From the sequence record OQ973471.1: a stretch of 64,000 nucleotides of DNA. One strand, given 5' to 3'. Numbering within the stretch: the stretch's first letter is position 1; every line of letters begins with the position of its first letter. A model generated the notes under the pieces. That model did not search any database. It was not told the origin of the DNA and saw only the letters and a list, made by a program, of their open reading frames with translations. Source of the DNA: Escherichia phage AV101. The position numbers and the translations under genes are program-made. Of this stretch, positions 14,180 through 54,483 are shown piece after piece.

Positions 14180-14207
14180 TCTGACTGGGGTTGCTTCCTT
14201 CAATAAA

Positions 14208-14248
14208 GGGGAATGGGTTATTATTAGCCCGTTCCCCTTTCTTTTTGC
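14208..14248 (+). terminator. Rho-independent terminator with embedded TATTAT
   Basis: Stem GGGGAATGGG/CCCGTTCCCC, loop TTATTATTAG, then TTTCTTTTT; preceded by TTCAATAAA at 14199. Confidence 0.65.
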
Positions 14249-14261
14249 AAGGATATACATC

Positions 14262-17029: not shown

Positions 17030-17046
17030 TCGTTCTTCAATAAAAG

Positions 17047-17077
17047 GGGATAGGGTATTATTGCTCTATCCCTTTTT
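17047..17077 (+). terminator. Rho-independent terminator with embedded TATTAT
   Basis: Stem GGGATAG/CTATCCC, loop containing TATTAT, then TTTTT; preceded by TTCAATAAA at 17036. Confidence 0.6.
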
Positions 17078-17140
17078 CGTGGACAGGAACATGACAGACA
17101 AGCCAAGAAAGATGAAGAACAAACGCCGGAGCAAACGCTG

Positions 17141-18282: not shown

Positions 18283-18291
18283 TCTGAACAA

Positions 18292-18313
18292 AGCCCTCTG
18301 CTGAGGGCTTTTT
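18292..18313 (+). terminator. Rho-independent terminator
   Basis: AGCCCTC-TGCT-GAGGGCT followed by TTTTT; TTCAAT 15 nt TATTAT element immediately downstream (18312-18338). Confidence 0.6.
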
Positions 18314-18389
18314 CAATTGAAGACACCCACCGTATTATACCCACTCAACCAATATGTTTCCCCTTTGACATTGATAGGATTTCTATACT

Positions 18390-21146
18390 ATGAAAATGCG
18401 CAAGTCCGAGCACTTTATCCGCTCGTCGTCTTCCATTCAGGGGCAGGCGTTCAACGTGAAGATGAACGATAAGATGTTTGAGACTCTGTTCTCATCATTG
18501 TATCGTTACAAAGAGGCTGCAGCCCTGCGCGAAACCGTCTGTAACGCCATCGACTCCCATGGCATGCGTGATCGTATGCACCGTGTGATGGCATCCCACT
18601 ACGCGCCTCTCACTCCGCCTCCTGCCCGCCATAGCAAATACCTTGCACCGAAGGGTAAGCAGGTTGTTGTGCATCTACCTGATGACTTTGAACCATGGCT
18701 GGAAATACGTGATTACGGCATCGGTCTGCCACTTGAGAAGATCATTGGCGAGCCTATCCCAGCGCAGGAAGATGAGGTGCTGCTGGAAGGTAACATGGTG
18801 GTCAAGGAAGATGAGATCCCTGACTCAGCTGAGGTCATCGGCGTGCCTGCGTTCTATAATGGTGGTCTAGTGTTCCGTCGTGAAGATGGTGAAATCATTC
18901 GTACGCCTGGGTTGTATACCACTCTCTTCCACAGTACGAAGGAAGAAGATGATGATCAGATTGGGGCATTCGGTCTTGGCTCCAAATCACCATTTGCGGT
19001 ATCGGATTCGTTCACTGTGGAAAGCCGCATGGACGGTAAACTCCATCGCTTCCTGATGTACCTGAATGCCAAGCGCATCCCGACTGTTGATCTGATCACC
19101 AAAGATCTTGAAACCCGTGATCCTAAGCCGGAAGACACCGATGAGTTCAACGGCATGACGGTGAAGATCCCGGTGAAGAACGCTCGTTTCTCTGCATTCT
19201 CCGATGAACTGGTCCGTCTTGGTCGTGTTATGCGCCCTGAACAGCGTCCAATTGTTGAGAACGCTTCATACCGCTTCAGCTGGGAAGATATCAGTTATGA
19301 ATTCAAGGTCAACAACACGTACATCCAGCCGAAAGGCCAGGGGAACACCCATTATGCTGTAATGGGTGGCGTGTCGTACCCGATTGACCTGAATCAGCTC
19401 GATCCAGACACTTCCTCTATCATGAGCAAGTTTCCATCGTCCTATACGTTCTTCGAACTTGGCTCGCTGAACGTACCGCCGTCGCGTGAAGACCTTTCAT
19501 ATGACGAATTCACGCGTGAGACGCTCTCTGAGGAGTTTAAGGGCACCGCCAATGCAATCTTGACAGAAAAGATGCGTGACCTGGAGCTGGCGTGTAAGCG
19601 CGGTCCTCTTGCCCTGTATATGGAGAAGGCAAGACTGAGCGAAATGTTCGGCAGCGGGTTCCGCAAGATGGTTGAAAAGGAATACCCGGCTGACAAGCGC
19701 TTCCACGATTCATATTACCGTTACCCGCTGCCTGTTGAGATTGATCGCGATTATGACCATACCGCGCCGTTCAATGAGCTGTCATCGCCGTTTTCTATGG
19801 AGATCTTCTATGACTGGGGTGAGTCCAGTACCCTGACCATTTCAGAAATCCAGAAGTGGATTGATCGCGGCCAGCATGTTACTGTGGTGATTGAAGATAG
19901 TGTTCGCGCACGTAATCTGAAGATCAAGCAGCTGAAAGATACAGGGACGATAGTCATCGTGGCCAAGCCGAACACATCCTATGTCACCAAGCGCAACCAA
20001 TCTAAGGACAACCCTGCGTTCAAGAATTCTCAGGCTCTCTATGATTTCTTTGAAACTTGGATTGGTAAAGAAGAAACGACGGTTGATTATCTGTGCTTCG
20101 CTGACAAGTTCGTCGATTGGCTGAGTGCGGTGCTGGAGCCTGCTGAAGTTAAGTTCATGAACGAACTGACGTATGTCACGCCCCCGGTCACCAAAGACCC
20201 TGGCATGTTTCCGTTCACGCGCAGCAACTTCGACATATACCAGTCTGAAGAACTGACGGGCGACCAGATCTCAGATATCATCAACAAGGGCGAGCGCATC
20301 GTCTATATTGAGGTGTCTGGCTATGAGTGTATCCATCAGGTGATGGGCAGAACGTTGACCACAGCTGCGGCGCGAGGCATCCGCGAGTCTCTCTACAAAC
20401 ATGCCGTTCACGCGGATGAAGATGGCAAGCCTGTGTACATCAAAGATATGCTCAATATTCACGACAGAATATTCTTGGCTCGCCGTAAATCCGTGCCAAT
20501 GATGAAGAAGTTCCCAGAAGTCTTCATTCCGATTGATGAGATTCTGAAGATTATGTTGGAGAATGCCAAGCCGATGCTGGAACGCCACAACGCGATACGG
20601 TTGCTGAAATCTCATCAGAGACTTCACCTTGGTTCTAATCGCCTGAAATACGGGTGTCATCTGGTAAAACAGGCGTTCGGTGAAGGGGAAGACGGGCGTT
20701 ATAATCAGCTGGTTAATCGGTATAACCAAATGCTGTATTATGTTGACAATATCTTGGACGAACAAACTATCCGCCATTATCAGGCGATGTCGAAGCGTAA
20801 TGTTTCTCTTCATGAGGTTCGCCGCTTCAAACATTTCCAGGATACGATCAGCACTCTGAATCTGAATCTGTATACCAATGAGCGGGATGAAAGGGTGTTC
20901 CGCGCGGAACAACGTATGTTGCAAATCTTCAGTCGCGCATCGGAAGTTCTGAGGATTCACGGATTCGTACCGTTTGATTTACTGAAGACGCCAACACGGA
21001 ACGCGAAAAAGGCGAACCGCATGACCGTAGAACGTCATCGTGTTGTCCGGTTCTTGAAAGAGAATTACAAACCAAGCGCCCTGAACCCGATTGAAAATTC
21101 TTCGGATTACTTGGACGTTATTTCAAATTCCATTATCAGGGCATAA
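18390..21146 (+). CDS. rIIA: rIIA-like protein (GHKL-type ATPase-like N-terminus)
   Basis: ETVCNAIDSHG, IRDYGIGLP and GAFGLGSKSPFAVSDSFTVESR match the conserved N-terminal blocks of T4 rIIA as I recall them. Confidence 0.8.
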   Translation: MKMRKSEHFIRSSSSIQGQAFNVKMNDKMFETLFSSLYRYKEAAALRETVCNAIDSHGMRDRMHRVMASHYAPLTPPPARHSKYLAPKGKQVVVHLPDDFEPWLEIRDYGIGLPLEKIIGEPIPAQEDEVLLEGNMVVKEDEIPDSAEVIGVPAFYNGGLVFRREDGEIIRTPGLYTTLFHSTKEEDDDQIGAFGLGSKSPFAVSDSFTVESRMDGKLHRFLMYLNAKRIPTVDLITKDLETRDPKPEDTDEFNGMTVKIPVKNARFSAFSDELVRLGRVMRPEQRPIVENASYRFSWEDISYEFKVNNTYIQPKGQGNTHYAVMGGVSYPIDLNQLDPDTSSIMSKFPSSYTFFELGSLNVPPSREDLSYDEFTRETLSEEFKGTANAILTEKMRDLELACKRGPLALYMEKARLSEMFGSGFRKMVEKEYPADKRFHDSYYRYPLPVEIDRDYDHTAPFNELSSPFSMEIFYDWGESSTLTISEIQKWIDRGQHVTVVIEDSVRARNLKIKQLKDTGTIVIVAKPNTSYVTKRNQSKDNPAFKNSQALYDFFETWIGKEETTVDYLCFADKFVDWLSAVLEPAEVKFMNELTYVTPPVTKDPGMFPFTRSNFDIYQSEELTGDQISDIINKGERIVYIEVSGYECIHQVMGRTLTTAAARGIRESLYKHAVHADEDGKPVYIKDMLNIHDRIFLARRKSVPMMKKFPEVFIPIDEILKIMLENAKPMLERHNAIRLLKSHQRLHLGSNRLKYGCHLVKQAFGEGEDGRYNQLVNRYNQMLYYVDNILDEQTIRHYQAMSKRNVSLHEVRRFKHFQDTISTLNLNLYTNERDERVFRAEQRMLQIFSRASEVLRIHGFVPFDLLKTPTRNAKKANRMTVERHRVVRFLKENYKPSALNPIENSSDYLDVISNSIIRA

Positions 21147-31198: not shown

Positions 31199-31609
31199 AT
31201 GAAATTACTGGGATATTTTCGTGAACTCCCAACGGGAACTGAAGGCAAGTTGTTCTCACAGGTGAAGGGGGATGACATCGGTGATACGATGATTCCATTG
31301 TACACTCGTGAACTTCCTGTCGAAGGTGCCTGGGAGCGCCGTGTGGTCGCTGCCGCCAACAAATATGGTGATGTAATCGTCGTTGCTGACCGTCACCACA
31401 GCCGATTCATGAACAACCAGCTCAAGATCCTGAAAGAAGCAGGCGTCATTAAATCCACCCATACCCGCGAACAGGGATTCATCGACAACCAGGGCAACTT
31501 CCTCACTCGTGAAGAGGCATGCATCGTAGCCCGTGAAGCTGGACAGATCAATCAGGTGCGCCTGAAGACAACCCCTTTCCGTGAACTCTTTTCCGAAGAC
31601 CTCTATTGA
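31199..31609 (+). CDS. Hypothetical protein
   Basis: 136 aa; conserved-looking block GFIDNQGNFLTREEACIVAREAGQI that I could not assign. Confidence 0.45.
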   Translation: MKLLGYFRELPTGTEGKLFSQVKGDDIGDTMIPLYTRELPVEGAWERRVVAAANKYGDVIVVADRHHSRFMNNQLKILKEAGVIKSTHTREQGFIDNQGNFLTREEACIVAREAGQINQVRLKTTPFRELFSEDLY

Positions 31610-31615
31610 AGAAAA

Positions 31616-31640
31616 AGGCGGTATTATTACCGCCTCGACC
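31616..31640 (+). terminator. Stem-loop with TTAT loop (terminator-like)
   Basis: AGGCGGTA-TTAT-TACCGCCT directly after the stop codon, preceded by TATTGAAGAA. Confidence 0.5.
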
Positions 31641-31659: not shown

Positions 31660-31902
31660 ATGAACCCAGAATTTGAAAATCTGTTCGAGCGATGCTTCGA
31701 ACCAGGTTCTGTGTCCGGTTACATGGACCGTCTTTGCACTGCCATTGTAATACGCCTTGCTGCCAAGGGTATCGTTGTCAACACCATTATCCGCAATGGG
31801 AACAACTTTATCATGCAGATGACTGATTATCACCGCCGCACAGGCATCATCCAGGTGTCATGTGTTGACAATAGCATTATTGAATGGAGACAGTACGCAT
31901 GA
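31660..31902 (+). CDS. Hypothetical protein
   Basis: 80-aa ORF. Confidence 0.4.
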   Translation: MNPEFENLFERCFEPGSVSGYMDRLCTAIVIRLAAKGIVVNTIIRNGNNFIMQMTDYHRRTGIIQVSCVDNSIIEWRQYA

Positions 31903-34971: not shown

Positions 34972-35297
34972 AAAAGCCACGCATCACAGGACATCAACTC
35001 TGCGTCCTTTTAGGAATGTTGAACTTTGAGAAAGGTCATTGCCGTTATGGTGAATGGTACTTTCATCCCAAATCCTGGACCAATGACAAGGGCAACACCG
35101 TCTGGACGTTCCGGGTATGCCCGAACGCTGGTGGTTTCACCTCCGTCAAAGGCAACCCCCGCACTGGGGCTTCCCTGTTGTCCAAAGGGTTAATTGAACC
35201 AGCTGGCTCAATGGTTCATGACGGTTCTTACGTGAACTGGCCGAACACTGAGGTGACGTTCTATCGCCTGACCGAACTCGGTAAATCTTATCTCTGA
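34968..35297 (+). CDS. Hypothetical protein
   Basis: ATG at 34968 overlapping the upstream stop (ATGA). Confidence 0.4.
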   Translation: MKKPRITGHQLCVLLGMLNFEKGHCRYGEWYFHPKSWTNDKGNTVWTFRVCPNAGGFTSVKGNPRTGASLLSKGLIEPAGSMVHDGSYVNWPNTEVTFYRLTELGKSYL

Positions 35298-35367
35298 ATA
35301 AAGATTCAGCGGTTATTGAAGAAGGGGGAGTATATACTTCCCCTTAGTTTATTAAGAGGAACCGGAA

Positions 35368-35682
35368 ATGACCCCATTAAAAGAAATGTATGAGCGCCTG
35401 TCTGAACTACAGGCGAAGGAAAAGCGCTTCTCAGAAGAAGAGACAGAGCTGTCCGAGCTGAACACTTTGATCGCCACTCGTGAGAAGTACCTGCAGCGCT
35501 ACATTAATCACCCGCCGCGCATGGTAGACCGCGTCAGCACTATCATGGACCTGGATGAAGTTACTCCTGGCAAAGAAATCATTGTCAGGGAAGTCCACCA
35601 GATGGTCGCCATGGGTCAGATCTTTGGTCGTGCAGACCAAGACGACATGATCTTCCTCCTTGAAAAGAAACTGGTGATGTGA
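35368..35682 (+). CDS. Hypothetical protein
   Basis: 104-aa ORF; GAGGAAC RBS. Confidence 0.4.
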   Translation: MTPLKEMYERLSELQAKEKRFSEEETELSELNTLIATREKYLQRYINHPPRMVDRVSTIMDLDEVTPGKEIIVREVHQMVAMGQIFGRADQDDMIFLLEKKLVM

Positions 35683-37432: not shown

Positions 37433-37482
37433 AATCTAGTCCTAAATAGCCATAACACTCTATCTATTTAAGGGCTGAGACC

Positions 37483-43729: not shown

Positions 43730-45152
43730 TACTCTTCTCCAACAGGAATGCGATGTTTTCGATATACGCTTTCTGTATCGCATAGACTTCATCCAGTGTG
43801 TTGGCCACTTTCTTGTCAATGCGGACTTCTACAAGGCGAGGTAGGAACAAAGACTTCATCGCATCATCTGTCTTATCCTGTACGCCATTGGAGAGCACTG
43901 CGGCGATCTTGCCAATGTAGTCGCCCTGGTTCTCCCACATATGGCGTCTCAGCTCATCTGAGATCCCTGATACACCAACAACAAGCAGGCCGTCGGAAGT
44001 TTTACAAATCAGTGAGCCAAAAGTCTTGGCGTGTTTACCCTTCTTGTCGGCCTCGTTAAAGCCCACGATTTCAAGGTCACACTCAACCTCCATCTTCAGC
44101 TTCAGACCTTCAGAAGAAGTACCATCTTCCCACGGCATGTCTGCGGCCTTACATATCGTGCCTTCTTCTTTGCGAGCCAGCGCGTCTTTGAAGTGGTCGA
44201 CGGCTTCGGCAAATGAGTGAACAACACGAGTTTCCTGAACCTGAACCAGACCGTCGTCTTCATCAAACAGTTGCTGGATGATATCGAAGCGGCGCTCATA
44301 CGGGGTGTCCACGCGCTGGGCGTTGAACCATTGTTCATATGGCACAACATCCCACACCCGGTAGATCACCCGATAACGATCTTCTAGGGGTTCTCCTGTC
44401 TGAATCACGCTGTTGAGTTTACCGTTACCGACAGCACGAGGCAGGATGGTATTCGACTTGAGGTCAACAACGAGAAGTTCACCATGGAACACACTCTCAC
44501 CAATCCCCGCATCGTAGATCAGGTCTTTGAACACCAGTGAAAGGTTATCAACCGAACCACCTGCGATAAGGGAACCGGAGCGAGAGCGAATCTCAGGCTC
44601 TTTATTGTAACGACAGATGATGTTGGCGAACATACCGTCTGACTTCAGCTGGCTGTAGACACCACGCTTGAAGTCCATCTTCTTCAGCAGGTCAATCGTC
44701 ATGTTGTCATAACGATGATATGGAAGGATGTTGATCAGGCGTCCAGTACCTCCGGCGGCGTTGAATGCAGCGTTGATGCCCTTCTCAGCGATACCCGCCT
44801 TGATATCACGGTCTAGGATCATCTGAATGAGTTCGTGGTATTGGGGATCCATCTTCAGGGCGACAGAGGCCAACAGGGCATCAGCCTTTTGGCCACCGAC
44901 AAGGCGCTGCGCCATCTGGTCGAGGACGTCATAGACTTCGCTGATGTCATCAGTCTTCTCACGGACGAGCATGCGAGGATACGCGCTGAGTTTCAACTCA
45001 GTCCGATAGAACGACATCATTGGGTCATAGACATACTGCAGGAAGTCTGCCAAGTCTGGGTTGTTCTTGAATGCTTCGGTCAGCACGGCTTTCTTCGCAT
45101 TGCTGCCTTTGGTTTCGCGAAGTCGGTGGACTGTTTCAAGGATAGGGATCAT
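43722..45152 (-). CDS. ATP-dependent DNA ligase (T4 gp30-like)
   Basis: Adenylation motif I KSDGMF, motif EGTICKA, 476 aa; GGAGA RBS. Confidence 0.8.
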   Translation of the reverse strand: MIPILETVHRLRETKGSNAKKAVLTEAFKNNPDLADFLQYVYDPMMSFYRTELKLSAYPRMLVREKTDDISEVYDVLDQMAQRLVGGQKADALLASVALKMDPQYHELIQMILDRDIKAGIAEKGINAAFNAAGGTGRLINILPYHRYDNMTIDLLKKMDFKRGVYSQLKSDGMFANIICRYNKEPEIRSRSGSLIAGGSVDNLSLVFKDLIYDAGIGESVFHGELLVVDLKSNTILPRAVGNGKLNSVIQTGEPLEDRYRVIYRVWDVVPYEQWFNAQRVDTPYERRFDIIQQLFDEDDGLVQVQETRVVHSFAEAVDHFKDALARKEEGTICKAADMPWEDGTSSEGLKLKMEVECDLEIVGFNEADKKGKHAKTFGSLICKTSDGLLVVGVSGISDELRRHMWENQGDYIGKIAAVLSNGVQDKTDDAMKSLFLPRLVEVRIDKKVANTLDEVYAIQKAYIENIAFLLEKSNG

Positions 45153-45265
45153 GTGGTGTCTCCAGGGTTATATGTGCTGCTATTATAACCCTGGGGACTT
45201 CAATAGATTATTGGCGGGTACGGGATCTTGCCTGGCCGATAATGAGGTCAGTGTGTAGTCCTCGG

Positions 45266-46184: not shown

Positions 46185-47411
46185 TCATAATTTCCTCAAT
46201 TTGGCTCTGGTGACCTGAGTTTGTTTAACGCCGTTGTACTCAGTCAGTTCTTTGACACGACCACGGATGATCATATCGCCCTGCAAGAACTCTGTATCCA
46301 TATAAGAGGTCTTCCAGGTAATTGTATTACCTTCTGCTGTTTTGAAAGTAAACAGGTAGCTATCACCATATTCATTGGAGAAGAGGAAGGTGCGCTTGTC
46401 GAACCTGACTTGCACTTCCAGCATTTCACCGACTTCACCCACCCATTTGTTCTCCGCCTTGCGGTCAGCACGAGGACGATGGATGTAATCGTAATACTTC
46501 TTGGCACCCCAGCGGACTGTGTTGTTATCCTTGATGAGGTGATAACCGGGTTCACACATGCGTTTCAGGCGAACATTGAACTCATTAGATTCGGACAGCG
46601 CACTGATGAAAAGCTTCATATGGTACATTTCCGACTCGGCGTCTTCACAGTATTCGTGTGCCTTGTTTACGAAATACTCTTCATCGGAACCTGCTTTTGG
46701 TTTCTGATGAGACCGGACATAGCCCAGTACTTTGTCAAACAGTTCAGACTTGATATCCACGCCTGCCAGCATCACCTGGAAGCATGCACGCAGGAAACTG
46801 TGGGTGTCAGTGAAGCGCTCATTTTGGACGCGATATATACCCTCTGGGTCGTCCTCGTCTGGCATGAAGAACTCTTGGATTTCCAGATAGTAAGACATAA
46901 TCGCGTCAAGCGATTTCTGATGAGGTACATAATGATGCATACAGGTGCTACCAATCAGCATCTGGGCATGCGTTTCCTCATTTTCAATCACATACGTGTT
47001 CTTGCGACGGATGACTAGATTGCAATGCTGACACCAAGAGACGTTCTCTGTCTCGAAGCGACGGATGAATTCTGGGTTGATGTTGTCAACCAGTTTGTTC
47101 AGAATGACCTTTGGATATTCATGATTGAACTGACCGATGATCTTCCAGCCACCATAAGAGACGGGGCGGTCAATGCCTTCGCCTTCGAGAGTAACAGGTT
47201 TCCACCAGTGAGTAAGGATCTCACCAGTGAAGTCGCGGGTGTGGGTTTTGAAGGGTTCACCATAAGTCACAGTCGGAAACGGAACACCCAACCTTTCGGC
47301 AGTGCGCTCGAGCTTCTTCAGTCGCTCAACTACCAACCCTTCATTGTCGATCGGAATATTGAATGTTTTGACGTTCATTTCCAGCCTCATGATGTAGTTG
47401 TAACTCTTCAA
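46185..47411 (-). CDS. Hypothetical protein
   Basis: 408-aa ORF near the helicase gene; no TOPRIM or ligase motif found, so not called a primase. Confidence 0.45.
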   Translation of the reverse strand: MKSYNYIMRLEMNVKTFNIPIDNEGLVVERLKKLERTAERLGVPFPTVTYGEPFKTHTRDFTGEILTHWWKPVTLEGEGIDRPVSYGGWKIIGQFNHEYPKVILNKLVDNINPEFIRRFETENVSWCQHCNLVIRRKNTYVIENEETHAQMLIGSTCMHHYVPHQKSLDAIMSYYLEIQEFFMPDEDDPEGIYRVQNERFTDTHSFLRACFQVMLAGVDIKSELFDKVLGYVRSHQKPKAGSDEEYFVNKAHEYCEDAESEMYHMKLFISALSESNEFNVRLKRMCEPGYHLIKDNNTVRWGAKKYYDYIHRPRADRKAENKWVGEVGEMLEVQVRFDKRTFLFSNEYGDSYLFTFKTAEGNTITWKTSYMDTEFLQGDMIIRGRVKELTEYNGVKQTQVTRAKLRKL

Positions 47412-47455
47412 TACAGATTAAATATTAGGCGATTATTTCTTGAAAGTAAAGTTAT

Positions 47456-47488
47456 TGAAGTTAAAAAGCCCAGTACTTGACTGGGCTT
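47456..47488 (-). terminator. Rho-independent terminator (minus strand)
   Basis: AAGCCCAGT-loop-ACTGGGCTT followed on the minus strand by TTTTT, then TTCAATAAC. Confidence 0.55.
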
Positions 47489-47505
47489 CTTGGTGTTCTA
47501 TTGAC

Positions 47506-47820
47506 TTATTCGCCACTGGCATTCGGATCTCGATCGGGCTTGGCGTTCGGGAATAGAGACTCGTATAAGTCTTGATATTTCTCGCTCGTTTCGATCGTCT
47601 TATGGTAAGTTCCATTGGCGCGGTCGGATACAACCTTGCGCAAGTCGCTGGCCTTGATACCCGTGTCTTTCGCCAGCTCGGCCAGAGTCTCAGTAATGAA
47701 AGTCTGTTCTGACTTGATGCGGACCTGGGCGGCACGACAGTTTTCAATTGCACCTATCAGCTTGCGACGGGATTCAGGATCAGATGGTAGTACATAAAAG
47801 CCGATTTGTTCTACAGACAT
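47506..47820 (-). CDS. Hypothetical protein
   Basis: 104-aa ORF. Confidence 0.4.
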   Translation of the reverse strand: MSVEQIGFYVLPSDPESRRKLIGAIENCRAAQVRIKSEQTFITETLAELAKDTGIKASDLRKVVSDRANGTYHKTIETSEKYQDLYESLFPNAKPDRDPNASGE

Positions 47821-48171: not shown

Positions 48172-48235
48172 GATGTGCTCCTGGTTTACATTCAGATCAT
48201 AGAATTATACCCTATGACCTGCTTTATTGAATTGC

Positions 48236-54408: not shown

Positions 54409-54483
54409 AAACTGCTCCGATAAACAAAAGGAGCTGCTATTATAGCAACCCCTTCATCTATTGAACAGTTTCTGAACTTAAAT

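Follow-up and report, generated by a model that had tools for sequence, protein, structure and literature searches.

Intergenic cassettes with a flipped TTCAATAR box, a TATAAT-like hexamer and a G-rich stem-loop in an Agtrevirus-like Escherichia phage: candidate activator-dependent promoters

Results and Discussion

A 64,000-nucleotide stretch of the Escherichia phage AV101 genome (OQ973471.1, the whole of which is referred to as the window) carries four short cassettes in which an 8-bp box, YTATTGAA, precedes a TATAAT-like hexamer by 11 nucleotides (nt); in three of them the hexamer is enclosed by a hairpin. A more common class of cassettes bears the same box in the forward orientation, TTCAATAR, 12 nt upstream of the hexamer. 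Our preferred interpretation, to which we assign a probability of roughly 0.55, is that the four sites of this ViI-like phage serve as composite cassettes uniting promoter and stem-loop, similar to the promoter-early stem-loops (PeSLs) of T4-type phages and probably activator-dependent, with the hairpin acting on read-through RNA. The promoter part would consist of a sigma70-type -10 element (TATAAT, TATTAT or TATACT) and the 8-bp box, the latter replacing the -35 element and being centered near -28.

The region shares 96–97% identity with Enterobacter phage fGh-Ecl02 and Escherichia phages YX22, A221 and LHE287 and about 90% with Shigella phage AG3, hence the window derives from an Agtrevirus-like phage within the Ackermannviridae (ViI-like phages). 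Between about 6 and 42 kb, the genes are encoded on the plus strand, and between about 42 and 57 kb on the minus strand. All sites described here lie in short intergenic gaps and are oriented in the same way as the neighboring genes. At the four inverted-box sites, the gap that separates the preceding stop codon from the following Shine-Dalgarno (SD) sequence or ATG, a location also typical of PeSLs, is 50–113 nt long, and the hexamer stands 29–51 nt ahead of the ATG. For comparison, the orthologous regions of AG3, Vi01 (Kuttervirus), T765 (Taipeivirus) and Ds23CZ (Limestonevirus) were used, together with 14–21 IMG/VR contigs per site found with the neighboring proteins as queries.

Architecture of the Four Cassettes

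A sequence-only reading of the window had pointed to three places where a box, a G-rich hairpin and a TA-rich hexamer follow each other, and all three are present as described. The boxes are intact at each of them, but the longer motif TATTGAAGAA is matched at only 8 of 10 positions at the third site (TATTGAAGTC).

At site 1 (plus strand), the box TATTGAAG occupies 31604–31611 and the inverted 8-mer CTATTGAA (reverse complement TTCAATAG) 31603–31610, overlapping the end of an upstream Arn.3-like gene, namely its final sense codon and its stop (TAT TGA, the stop occupying 31607–31609). RNA folding predicts a hairpin, AGGCGGTA-TTAT-TACCGCCT, at 31616–31635, which encloses the hexamer TATTAT (31622–31627) situated 11 nt past the 8-mer. 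The sense strand has no T-run after this hairpin; TTTTTCTTC comes next on the opposite strand. The following ATG is at 31660 and opens a small gene (31660–31902, plus strand) encoding a full-length DUF7234 protein (Pfam E = 7e-41). Downstream of the same cassette in Kuttervirus and most Taipeivirus genomes, another gene is found instead.

Site 2 (plus strand) shows the box TATTGAAG at 35314–35321 and the 8-mer TTATTGAA (reverse complement TTCAATAA) at 35313–35320, directly followed by the hairpin AAGGGGGAGT-ATAT-ACTTCCCCTT with the U-rich tail AGTTTATT (35322–35345). Two overlapping -10-like hexamers, TATATA (35331–35336) and TATACT (35333–35338), can be read here, and it is TATACT that is retained at the N11 distance in Kuttervirus; the downstream ATG is at 35368. 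The gene preceding site 2 ends in a stop codon that overlaps a second small hairpin, CTGAAT-AAAG-ATTCAG (35293–35308, plus strand), which is retained in Agtrevirus and Limestonevirus, though not in Kuttervirus or Taipeivirus.

Site 3 lies on the minus strand upstream of the DNA ligase gene, with the box TATTGAAG at 45205–45198 and the 8-mer CTATTGAA, reverse complement TTCAATAG, at 45206–45199. Its hairpin (45198–45158) is the largest, having a 15-bp stem (GTCCCCAGGGTTATA / TATAACCCTGGAGAC) that extends from the G closing the box to GGAGAC, and an 11-nt loop. The hexamer TATAAT (45187–45182) spans the 5′ arm and the loop, while the SD of the ligase gene, GGAG (45163–45160), is paired in the 3′ arm, shortly before the ATG at 45152–45150. 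The spacer upstream of the ligase cassette (113 nt; 45206–45265, minus strand) ends in GATCCCGTACCCGCCAATAA, which matches the 3′ end of the small open reading frame (ORF) orf00046 of AG3, and about 1.7 kb of small membrane-protein genes are missing from the window compared to AG3 at this position; therefore, the spacer contains a gene remnant adjoining the cassette.

A fourth site with the same box-hexamer geometry is found upstream of rIIA (18314–18338, plus strand). There, the T-run of a terminator hairpin (18290–18311) continues into TTCAATTGAAG, and directly abutting it is the palindrome TTCAATTGAA (18312–18321), which contains both the inverted 8-mer CAATTGAA (18314–18321) and a forward TTCAAT (18312–18317). 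The hexamer TATTAT follows 11 nt past the 8-mer (18333–18338) and the rIIA ATG is at 18390. In the same place, Vi01 has CTATTGAG-N11-TATCAT and T765 CAATTGAA-N11-TATCAT. The rIIA hexamer is not surrounded by a hairpin, which stands immediately upstream instead, so that box, spacing and hexamer, not the hairpin, are the constants of the class.

Box Orientation, Enrichment and Spacing

Reverse-complementing the core of the box, TATTGAA, yields exactly TTCAATA, which forms the core of the class-1 TTCAATAAA cassettes. Read on the opposite strand, the boxes of sites 1 to 3 become CTTCAATAG, CTTCAATAA and CTTCAATAG, thus agreeing with the extended class-1 consensus (c)TTCAATA(A/G). The sequence-only reading is supported in part, namely in that the three places make up a coherent, non-random and promoter-like group akin to the TTCAATAAA cassettes. 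Its suggestion of either a diverged copy or a distinct promoter class has to be replaced, however, as the element is neither: it is an exact reverse complement standing in almost the same place relative to the hexamer. Judged by their sequences, the three sites are an orientation variant of the class-1 box/-10 class and not a separate promoter class.

Taken alone, TATTGAAG occurs 12 times in the window (2.0 expected), several copies being only class-1 CTTCAATA sites seen from the other strand or lying within genes. The composite TATTGAAG-N9-11-TAnnnT, on the other hand, is found at exactly the three sites against an expectation of 0.04, and none of 100 shuffled sequences reached three, so that the absence of enrichment that would have spoken against the group was not observed. 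Moreover, half of the window's TTCAATA copies in either orientation (15/30) fall within the approximately 7% of noncoding sequence, and in the complete Vi01 genome 34 of 89 are intergenic. The distance to a TATAAT-like hexamer is sharply defined, TTCAAT-N14 and TATTGAA-N11 forming peaks over a flat background. Expressed as 8-mers, forward TTCAATAR is modal at N12 and inverted YTATTGAA at N11; hence, the box is flipped essentially in place and, with the hexamer taken as a -10 element, would be centered near -28. Vi01, with its complete genome of 157 kb, has intergenic inverted-box sites at N11 exactly at the four positions orthologous to those in the window, alongside about 15–20 members of the forward class. 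A scan of IMG/VR for the exact pattern CTATTGAAG-N10-TATAAT returned more than 120 mostly unrelated contigs with one match each, which is the chance level for 15 specified bases and thus says nothing on occurrence outside the family, and a literature search combining the TTCAATAA motif string with phage gave nothing relevant.

Coincidence, combined with conservation among close relatives and coding constraint at site 1, would be a trivial explanation for the pattern. There are indeed only three to four sites, the site 1 box falls on Tyr and stop codons, and among the genomes compared, many are close relatives. We nevertheless regard this explanation as highly improbable in view of the 0.04 expected pattern matches, the fact that the box, when reverse-complemented, exactly equals a 7-mer enriched in its own right, and the conservation over four genera with diverging flanks.

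Recognition by host sigma70 polymerase alone is rather doubtful as well. The cassettes would then be weak -10-driven early promoters, with the box as a poor, mis-spaced -35 element or without relevance. In favor of this, the -10 hexamers match well, TTGAAG agrees with TTGACA at four of six positions, ViI-like phages must use the host polymerase early, and earlier authors found few canonical promoters. However, TTGAAG lies 10 nt and TTCAAT 14 nt from the hexamer, compared to the 16–18 nt needed. In none of the four cassettes is there a TTGACA-like hexamer at N16-18 or a TGn, and a sigma70 consensus scan calls none of them. The true early class could rather be represented by properly spaced TTTAC(A/T)-N16/17-TATAAT promoters present in the same genomes. 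Because these promoters of other geometry coexist with them, the box/-10 cassettes, as a second class, are likely regulated differently.

Several other assignments were rejected. Leftward promoters starting from the inverted box would have a TAnnnT at N12 on the opposite strand, which is absent at all sites. The -35 core of sigma32 promoters is CTTGAA, but the region preceding the hexamer is G-rich instead of CCCC and the hexamer is TATAAT-like. Integration host factor (IHF) sites as well as N4-type and late gp55 promoters were dismissed on sequence.

Conservation in Related Phages

Box, hexamer and spacing are kept at all four sites in Agtrevirus, Kuttervirus and Taipeivirus and at sites 2 and 3 in Limestonevirus, while the intergenic flanks diverge or are replaced between lineages. 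At site 1, TATTGAA is found in all 11 distinct orthologues from three genera, with the adjacent Leu codon varying synonymously (CTC/CTT), and the hexamer reads TATAAT, TAATAT or TATCAT in the orthologues, T1, A2, A5 and T6 always being kept. The site 2 box is conserved in Agtrevirus, Limestonevirus and Kuttervirus, with GTATTGAA in its place in Taipeivirus.

At site 3, the box is retained in 17 of 19 Ackermannviridae contigs despite unrelated sequence further upstream, and four unrelated upstream contexts converge on (A/T)ATAA(T/A)(C/T)TATTGAAGTC. The hexamer TATAAT is invariant across the orthologues, whereas most other loop positions vary. Also invariant in this otherwise variable loop is an AC dinucleotide 7–8 nt past the hexamer (columns A31 and C32), and transcription is predicted to start at A45175 (minus strand), i.e., 7 nt past the hexamer and inside the loop.

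Stem-Loops Overlapping the Hexamer

RNA folding of the sense strands showed significantly stable hairpins at sites 1, 2 and 3, with z values of -3.5, -2.9 and -4.8, respectively, with the site 3 hairpin reaching -20.4 kcal/mol. Among eight distinct site 3 orthologues, 91.7% of cells are paired, compared to 30–51% when the partner is slid; one pair is compensatory (A-U, G-U, G-C) and three more vary on one side only, by wobble. Genera differ in the sequence of the site 2 stem but not in its pairing (GGGGGAG/CTTCCCC, GGGGAAG/CTTCCCC and GGAGAG/CTCTCC). Variable stem positions are mostly G·U on the sense strand, where the antisense strand would have A·C. Of 19 comparisons, 14 show better folding of the sense strand, whose energies are also more uniform. 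As in PeSLs, a hairpin is found over the -10-like hexamer at three of the four sites (at rIIA immediately upstream) and G·U pairs are present. Only tRNAs, four in number, were detected in the window by Rfam at gathering thresholds, with no known RNA family at the hairpins.

The alternative that the hairpins are RNA elements only, i.e., terminators, attenuators or 3′-end stabilizers, with a fortuitous -10 likeness of the loops and an unrelated box (for example, a site for a nucleoid or regulatory protein or a terminator-flanking A-rich tract), appears unlikely, albeit with several observations in its favor. Besides the G·U pairs, which argue for a role at the RNA level, the site 1 and site 2 hairpins are listed as rho-independent terminators Torf021 and Torf031 in Table S2 of the AG3 paper (Anany 2011, PMC3121705), in which the ligase hairpin is not listed and none of the sites is called a promoter. 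With these terminators the cassettes share the very same hairpins, their GC-rich stems and, at site 2, the U-rich tail. In our terminator scan, site 2 is terminator-like on the sense strand, site 1 on the antisense strand only and site 3 on neither. However, sites 1 and 3 lack a sense-strand U-tract in all genera compared, box-N11-hexamer is kept at rIIA even though no hairpin surrounds the hexamer there, and the hexamer stays unchanged in loops whose remaining bases vary. Plain terminators of these genomes, with loops of the GNRA or UUCG type (e.g., TTCG and GAAA), differ from the cassettes, which show a conserved -10-like loop hexamer at fixed distance from a conserved box. Considering all intergenic hairpins of the window and Vi01, the box stands just upstream of 9 of the 12 with a -10-like loop hexamer but of only 3 of the 41 others (Fisher p = 9e-6). 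This association and the fixed box-hexamer spacing would be left unexplained by a function in RNA alone.

A role of the inverted repeats at the DNA level is considerably less probable still, either as extruded cruciforms or hairpins presenting a single-stranded -10 element (N4-type) or as hot spots of recombination for gene shuffling. The promoters of the coliphage N4 virion RNA polymerase are DNA hairpins with 5–7-bp stems and 3-nt loops, and the cassettes resemble them in that a promoter element is placed within a short hairpin. Furthermore, the -10 hexamer lies between inverted repeats, the genes beside the cassettes change (the downstream gene at site 1, the upstream sequence at site 3), and recombination at PeSLs is documented in RB49 and phi1 (PMC2839356). 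In contrast to N4, the stems here tolerate G·T pairs, pointing to RNA; most of the variable positions in the stems carry G·T on the sense strand, which would give mismatches in one cruciform arm. At rIIA, an inverted repeat around the hexamer is lacking, and the breakpoint of the indel on the ligase side is not at the cassette, as the remnant of the upstream ORF remains. No N4-like virion RNA polymerase is annotated in the related genomes viewed.

Candidate Mechanism and Known Promoter Systems

Returning to the composite promoter/stem-loop interpretation, the cassettes would be delayed-early or middle promoters that require a putative phage factor bound to the box. Such activator-dependent timing seems most likely because there is neither a -35 element nor a TGn and the spacing equals that of the T4 MotA box. 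The G-rich hairpin would act in RNA initiated at promoters further upstream, terminating or attenuating read-through RNA at site 2 and, at site 3, sequestering the ligase gene's ribosome-binding site. Starts about 7 nt past the hexamer are predicted at approximately 18345, 31634 and 35345 (plus strand) and 45175 (minus strand). Where a hairpin encloses the hexamer, such transcripts would begin inside the loop and so lack the 5′ arm, and they would be neither terminated nor translationally blocked. Observed are the sequence pattern with its enrichment, conservation and spacing, the conserved stems and the SD placed in the 3′ arm at site 3, whereas we infer promoter activity, start sites, activator dependence and the terminator and translational effects.

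PeSLs have been described in the T4-type phages RB49, phi1, T4/PST and KVP40/nt-1 (Arbiol 2010, PMC2839356; Comeau 2014, PMC4122927). In these elements, promoter and stem-loop can overlap at the -10, and polyG/polyC stems and G-T pairs occur (PMC2839356). The cassettes are similar in being short and intergenic, extending from a stop codon to the next SD or ATG, in combining a promoter with a polyG/polyC stem-loop and in occurring many times per genome. Likewise, the PeSL stem-loop often lies over the -10 and serves as a terminator or attenuator for upstream transcription, as proposed here. However, PeSLs have consensus sigma70 -35 and -10 elements at normal spacing (about 17 nt), whereas the cassettes have no -35 element but the 8-bp TTCAATAR, 11–12 nt from the -10 and in either orientation. 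In addition, promoter and terminator activities of PeSLs have been measured and PeSLs take part in indels and mini-circles, whereas the activities of the cassettes are predicted from the sequence.

The second obvious comparison is with the middle promoters of T4, in which the MotA box stands 12 ± 1 bp from the -10 and AsiA and MotA bring about sigma appropriation (Hinton 2010, PMC2988021). Common to both are a good -10, a missing -35 and a phage-specific box near -30, and the spacing of N12 (forward) and N11 (inverted) falls within 12 ± 1 bp. Middle promoters of T4, like the cassettes, serve genes of replication and nucleotide metabolism as well as rIIA. In contrast, the MotA consensus (a/t)(a/t)(a/t)TGCTTtA differs from TTCAATAR/YTATTGAA, which has no TGCTT core, the box occurs here in both orientations, and no MotA or AsiA is reported in ViI-like phages (PMC3184105). 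Hence, as PeSLs deviate in the -35 element and the MotA class in the box sequence, the relationship is one of resemblance and not of membership, and this resemblance is functional and architectural only.

For site 3, a further parallel exists in the T4 genes e, soc, 49 and I-TevI, where a promoter inside a hairpin that sequesters the ribosome-binding site gives the only translatable transcripts (Uzan and Miller 2010, PMC3014915). The ligase cassette corresponds to this with its SD in the 3′ arm and its hexamer in the 5′ arm and loop; no such arrangement is seen at sites 1 and 2 and at rIIA. The internal promoters of the T4 genes, however, are gp55 late promoters (TATAAATA), while a sigma70-type TATAAT precedes a replication gene here, and the ligase hexamer matches neither TATAAATA nor the CTAAATA motif of late genes in the window.

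Several points weigh against the proposed mechanism. MotA and AsiA homologues are reported to be absent from CBA120, ViI and AG3 (Kutter et al., PMC3184105), and an asymmetric box working in both orientations would be unusual for a monomeric activator of the MotA type. Among the few ORFs scanned as candidates for the factor, 47506–47820 (PHROG 639, “transcriptional regulator”) gave no Pfam match, no PDB sequence match and no significant Foldseek match, the latter with a single-sequence model (pLDDT 77.5) as query. In the searchable literature, no transcription start, RNA-seq or reporter data were found for any Ackermannviridae phage, and the published annotation has two of the hairpins as terminators, as outlined above. 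Coding constraint could account for part of the conservation of the site 1 box, and in two lineages, L020 (TATTTCAG) and L023 (TATTGATG), the site 3 box is degenerate with the hexamer intact. Regarding the stems, changes at site 1 are by wobble only, and in the window itself it is the antisense strand of site 3 that gives the better fold. Covariation at site 3 is not significant, 166 of 500 shuffles reaching the observed score, which is due to low divergence.

More tentatively, a switch resembling sigma appropriation but operating without MotA and AsiA is conceivable, if less than probable. A putative phage protein binding TTCAATAR near -30 in either orientation would shut off early promoters and turn on the box/-10 promoters, with the hairpins coupling the choice of promoter with termination and, in the case of ligase, with translation. 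A single factor could have both effects since the box is also present in the spacer (TTCAAT-N8) of TTTACT-N16/17-TATACT promoters and, inverted, just upstream of their -35 element.

ViI-like phages (Kuttervirus, Agtrevirus, Limestonevirus and Taipeivirus) are widely used in biocontrol and therapy. In the AG3 and CBA120 papers, only eight sigma70-like promoters were found and early and middle promoters could not be identified (PMC3184105, PMC3121705), and the promoters of LIMEstone were assigned by similarity to T4. The box/-10 cassettes of both orientations thus offer concrete promoter candidates with predicted starts as well as DNA bait for the missing regulator. Hairpins annotated as terminators may be dual-purpose, which bears on annotation, phage engineering and the reading of future transcriptomes.

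Further Box- and Hairpin-Containing Spacers

Class-1 cassettes of the form TTCAATAR-N12-14-TATAAT/TATTAT with the hexamer in a G-rich hairpin are located at about 1507–1560, 9092–9125, 14199–14250 and 17036–17080 on the plus strand and at 48231–48190, 54465–54420 and 59459–59420 on the minus strand. As a T-run comes next in several of them, promoter and terminator appear to overlap; the AG3 orthologue of the cassette at 54465 is listed by the AG3 authors, without comment, as both promoter Porf067 and terminator Torf069. An additional forward box, TTCAATAA-N11-TATAGT (444–468), stands directly upstream of the second gene of a tRNA cluster comprising four genes (Rfam; 230–303, 478–550, 811–891 and 1115–1200, plus strand).

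A T4-early-like promoter, TTTACT-N16-TATACT, lies within 5090–5184 (minus strand), with TTTACT at 5166–5161, TTCAAT at 5158–5153 and TATACT at 5144–5139. The TTCAATAA box is thus placed within the spacer, and an inverted box, TTTATTGAA, is found just upstream of the -35 element. Stretches of 100 nt around both boxes are identical to Vi01, which belongs to a different subfamily with about 78% identity overall. About 11 TTTAC(A/T)-N16/17 promoters are present in Vi01, the spacing peaking at N16-17. Similarly, several elements come together in the intergenic region 47391–47505 (minus strand), where a terminator hairpin (AAGCCCAGT...ACTGGGCTT, with T-run), a box in forward orientation and TTTACT-N17-TAATAT are joined by an inverted box that lies just 17 nt ahead of the following gene's ATG; immediately upstream of this region is the above-mentioned ORF 47506–47820 assigned to PHROG 639.

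Finally, a late-promoter-like motif, (C)TAAATA(C/G)CC, occurs in the 5′ arm of long hairpins at 3501–3534 (plus strand) and about 61122–61080 (minus strand), whose 3′ arm (GGGGTATTTA or GGGCTATTTA) reaches the start codon of the downstream gene. The design proposed for the box/-10 cassettes is thus met with again at these places, which speaks in favor of the composite interpretation. Similar CTAAATA motifs are found at about 4002–4012 and at 37448–37456 (both plus strand) and at about 56580 (minus strand). The motif is a candidate late-promoter consensus of the family, placed within a hairpin in the same layout as in T4 e and soc.

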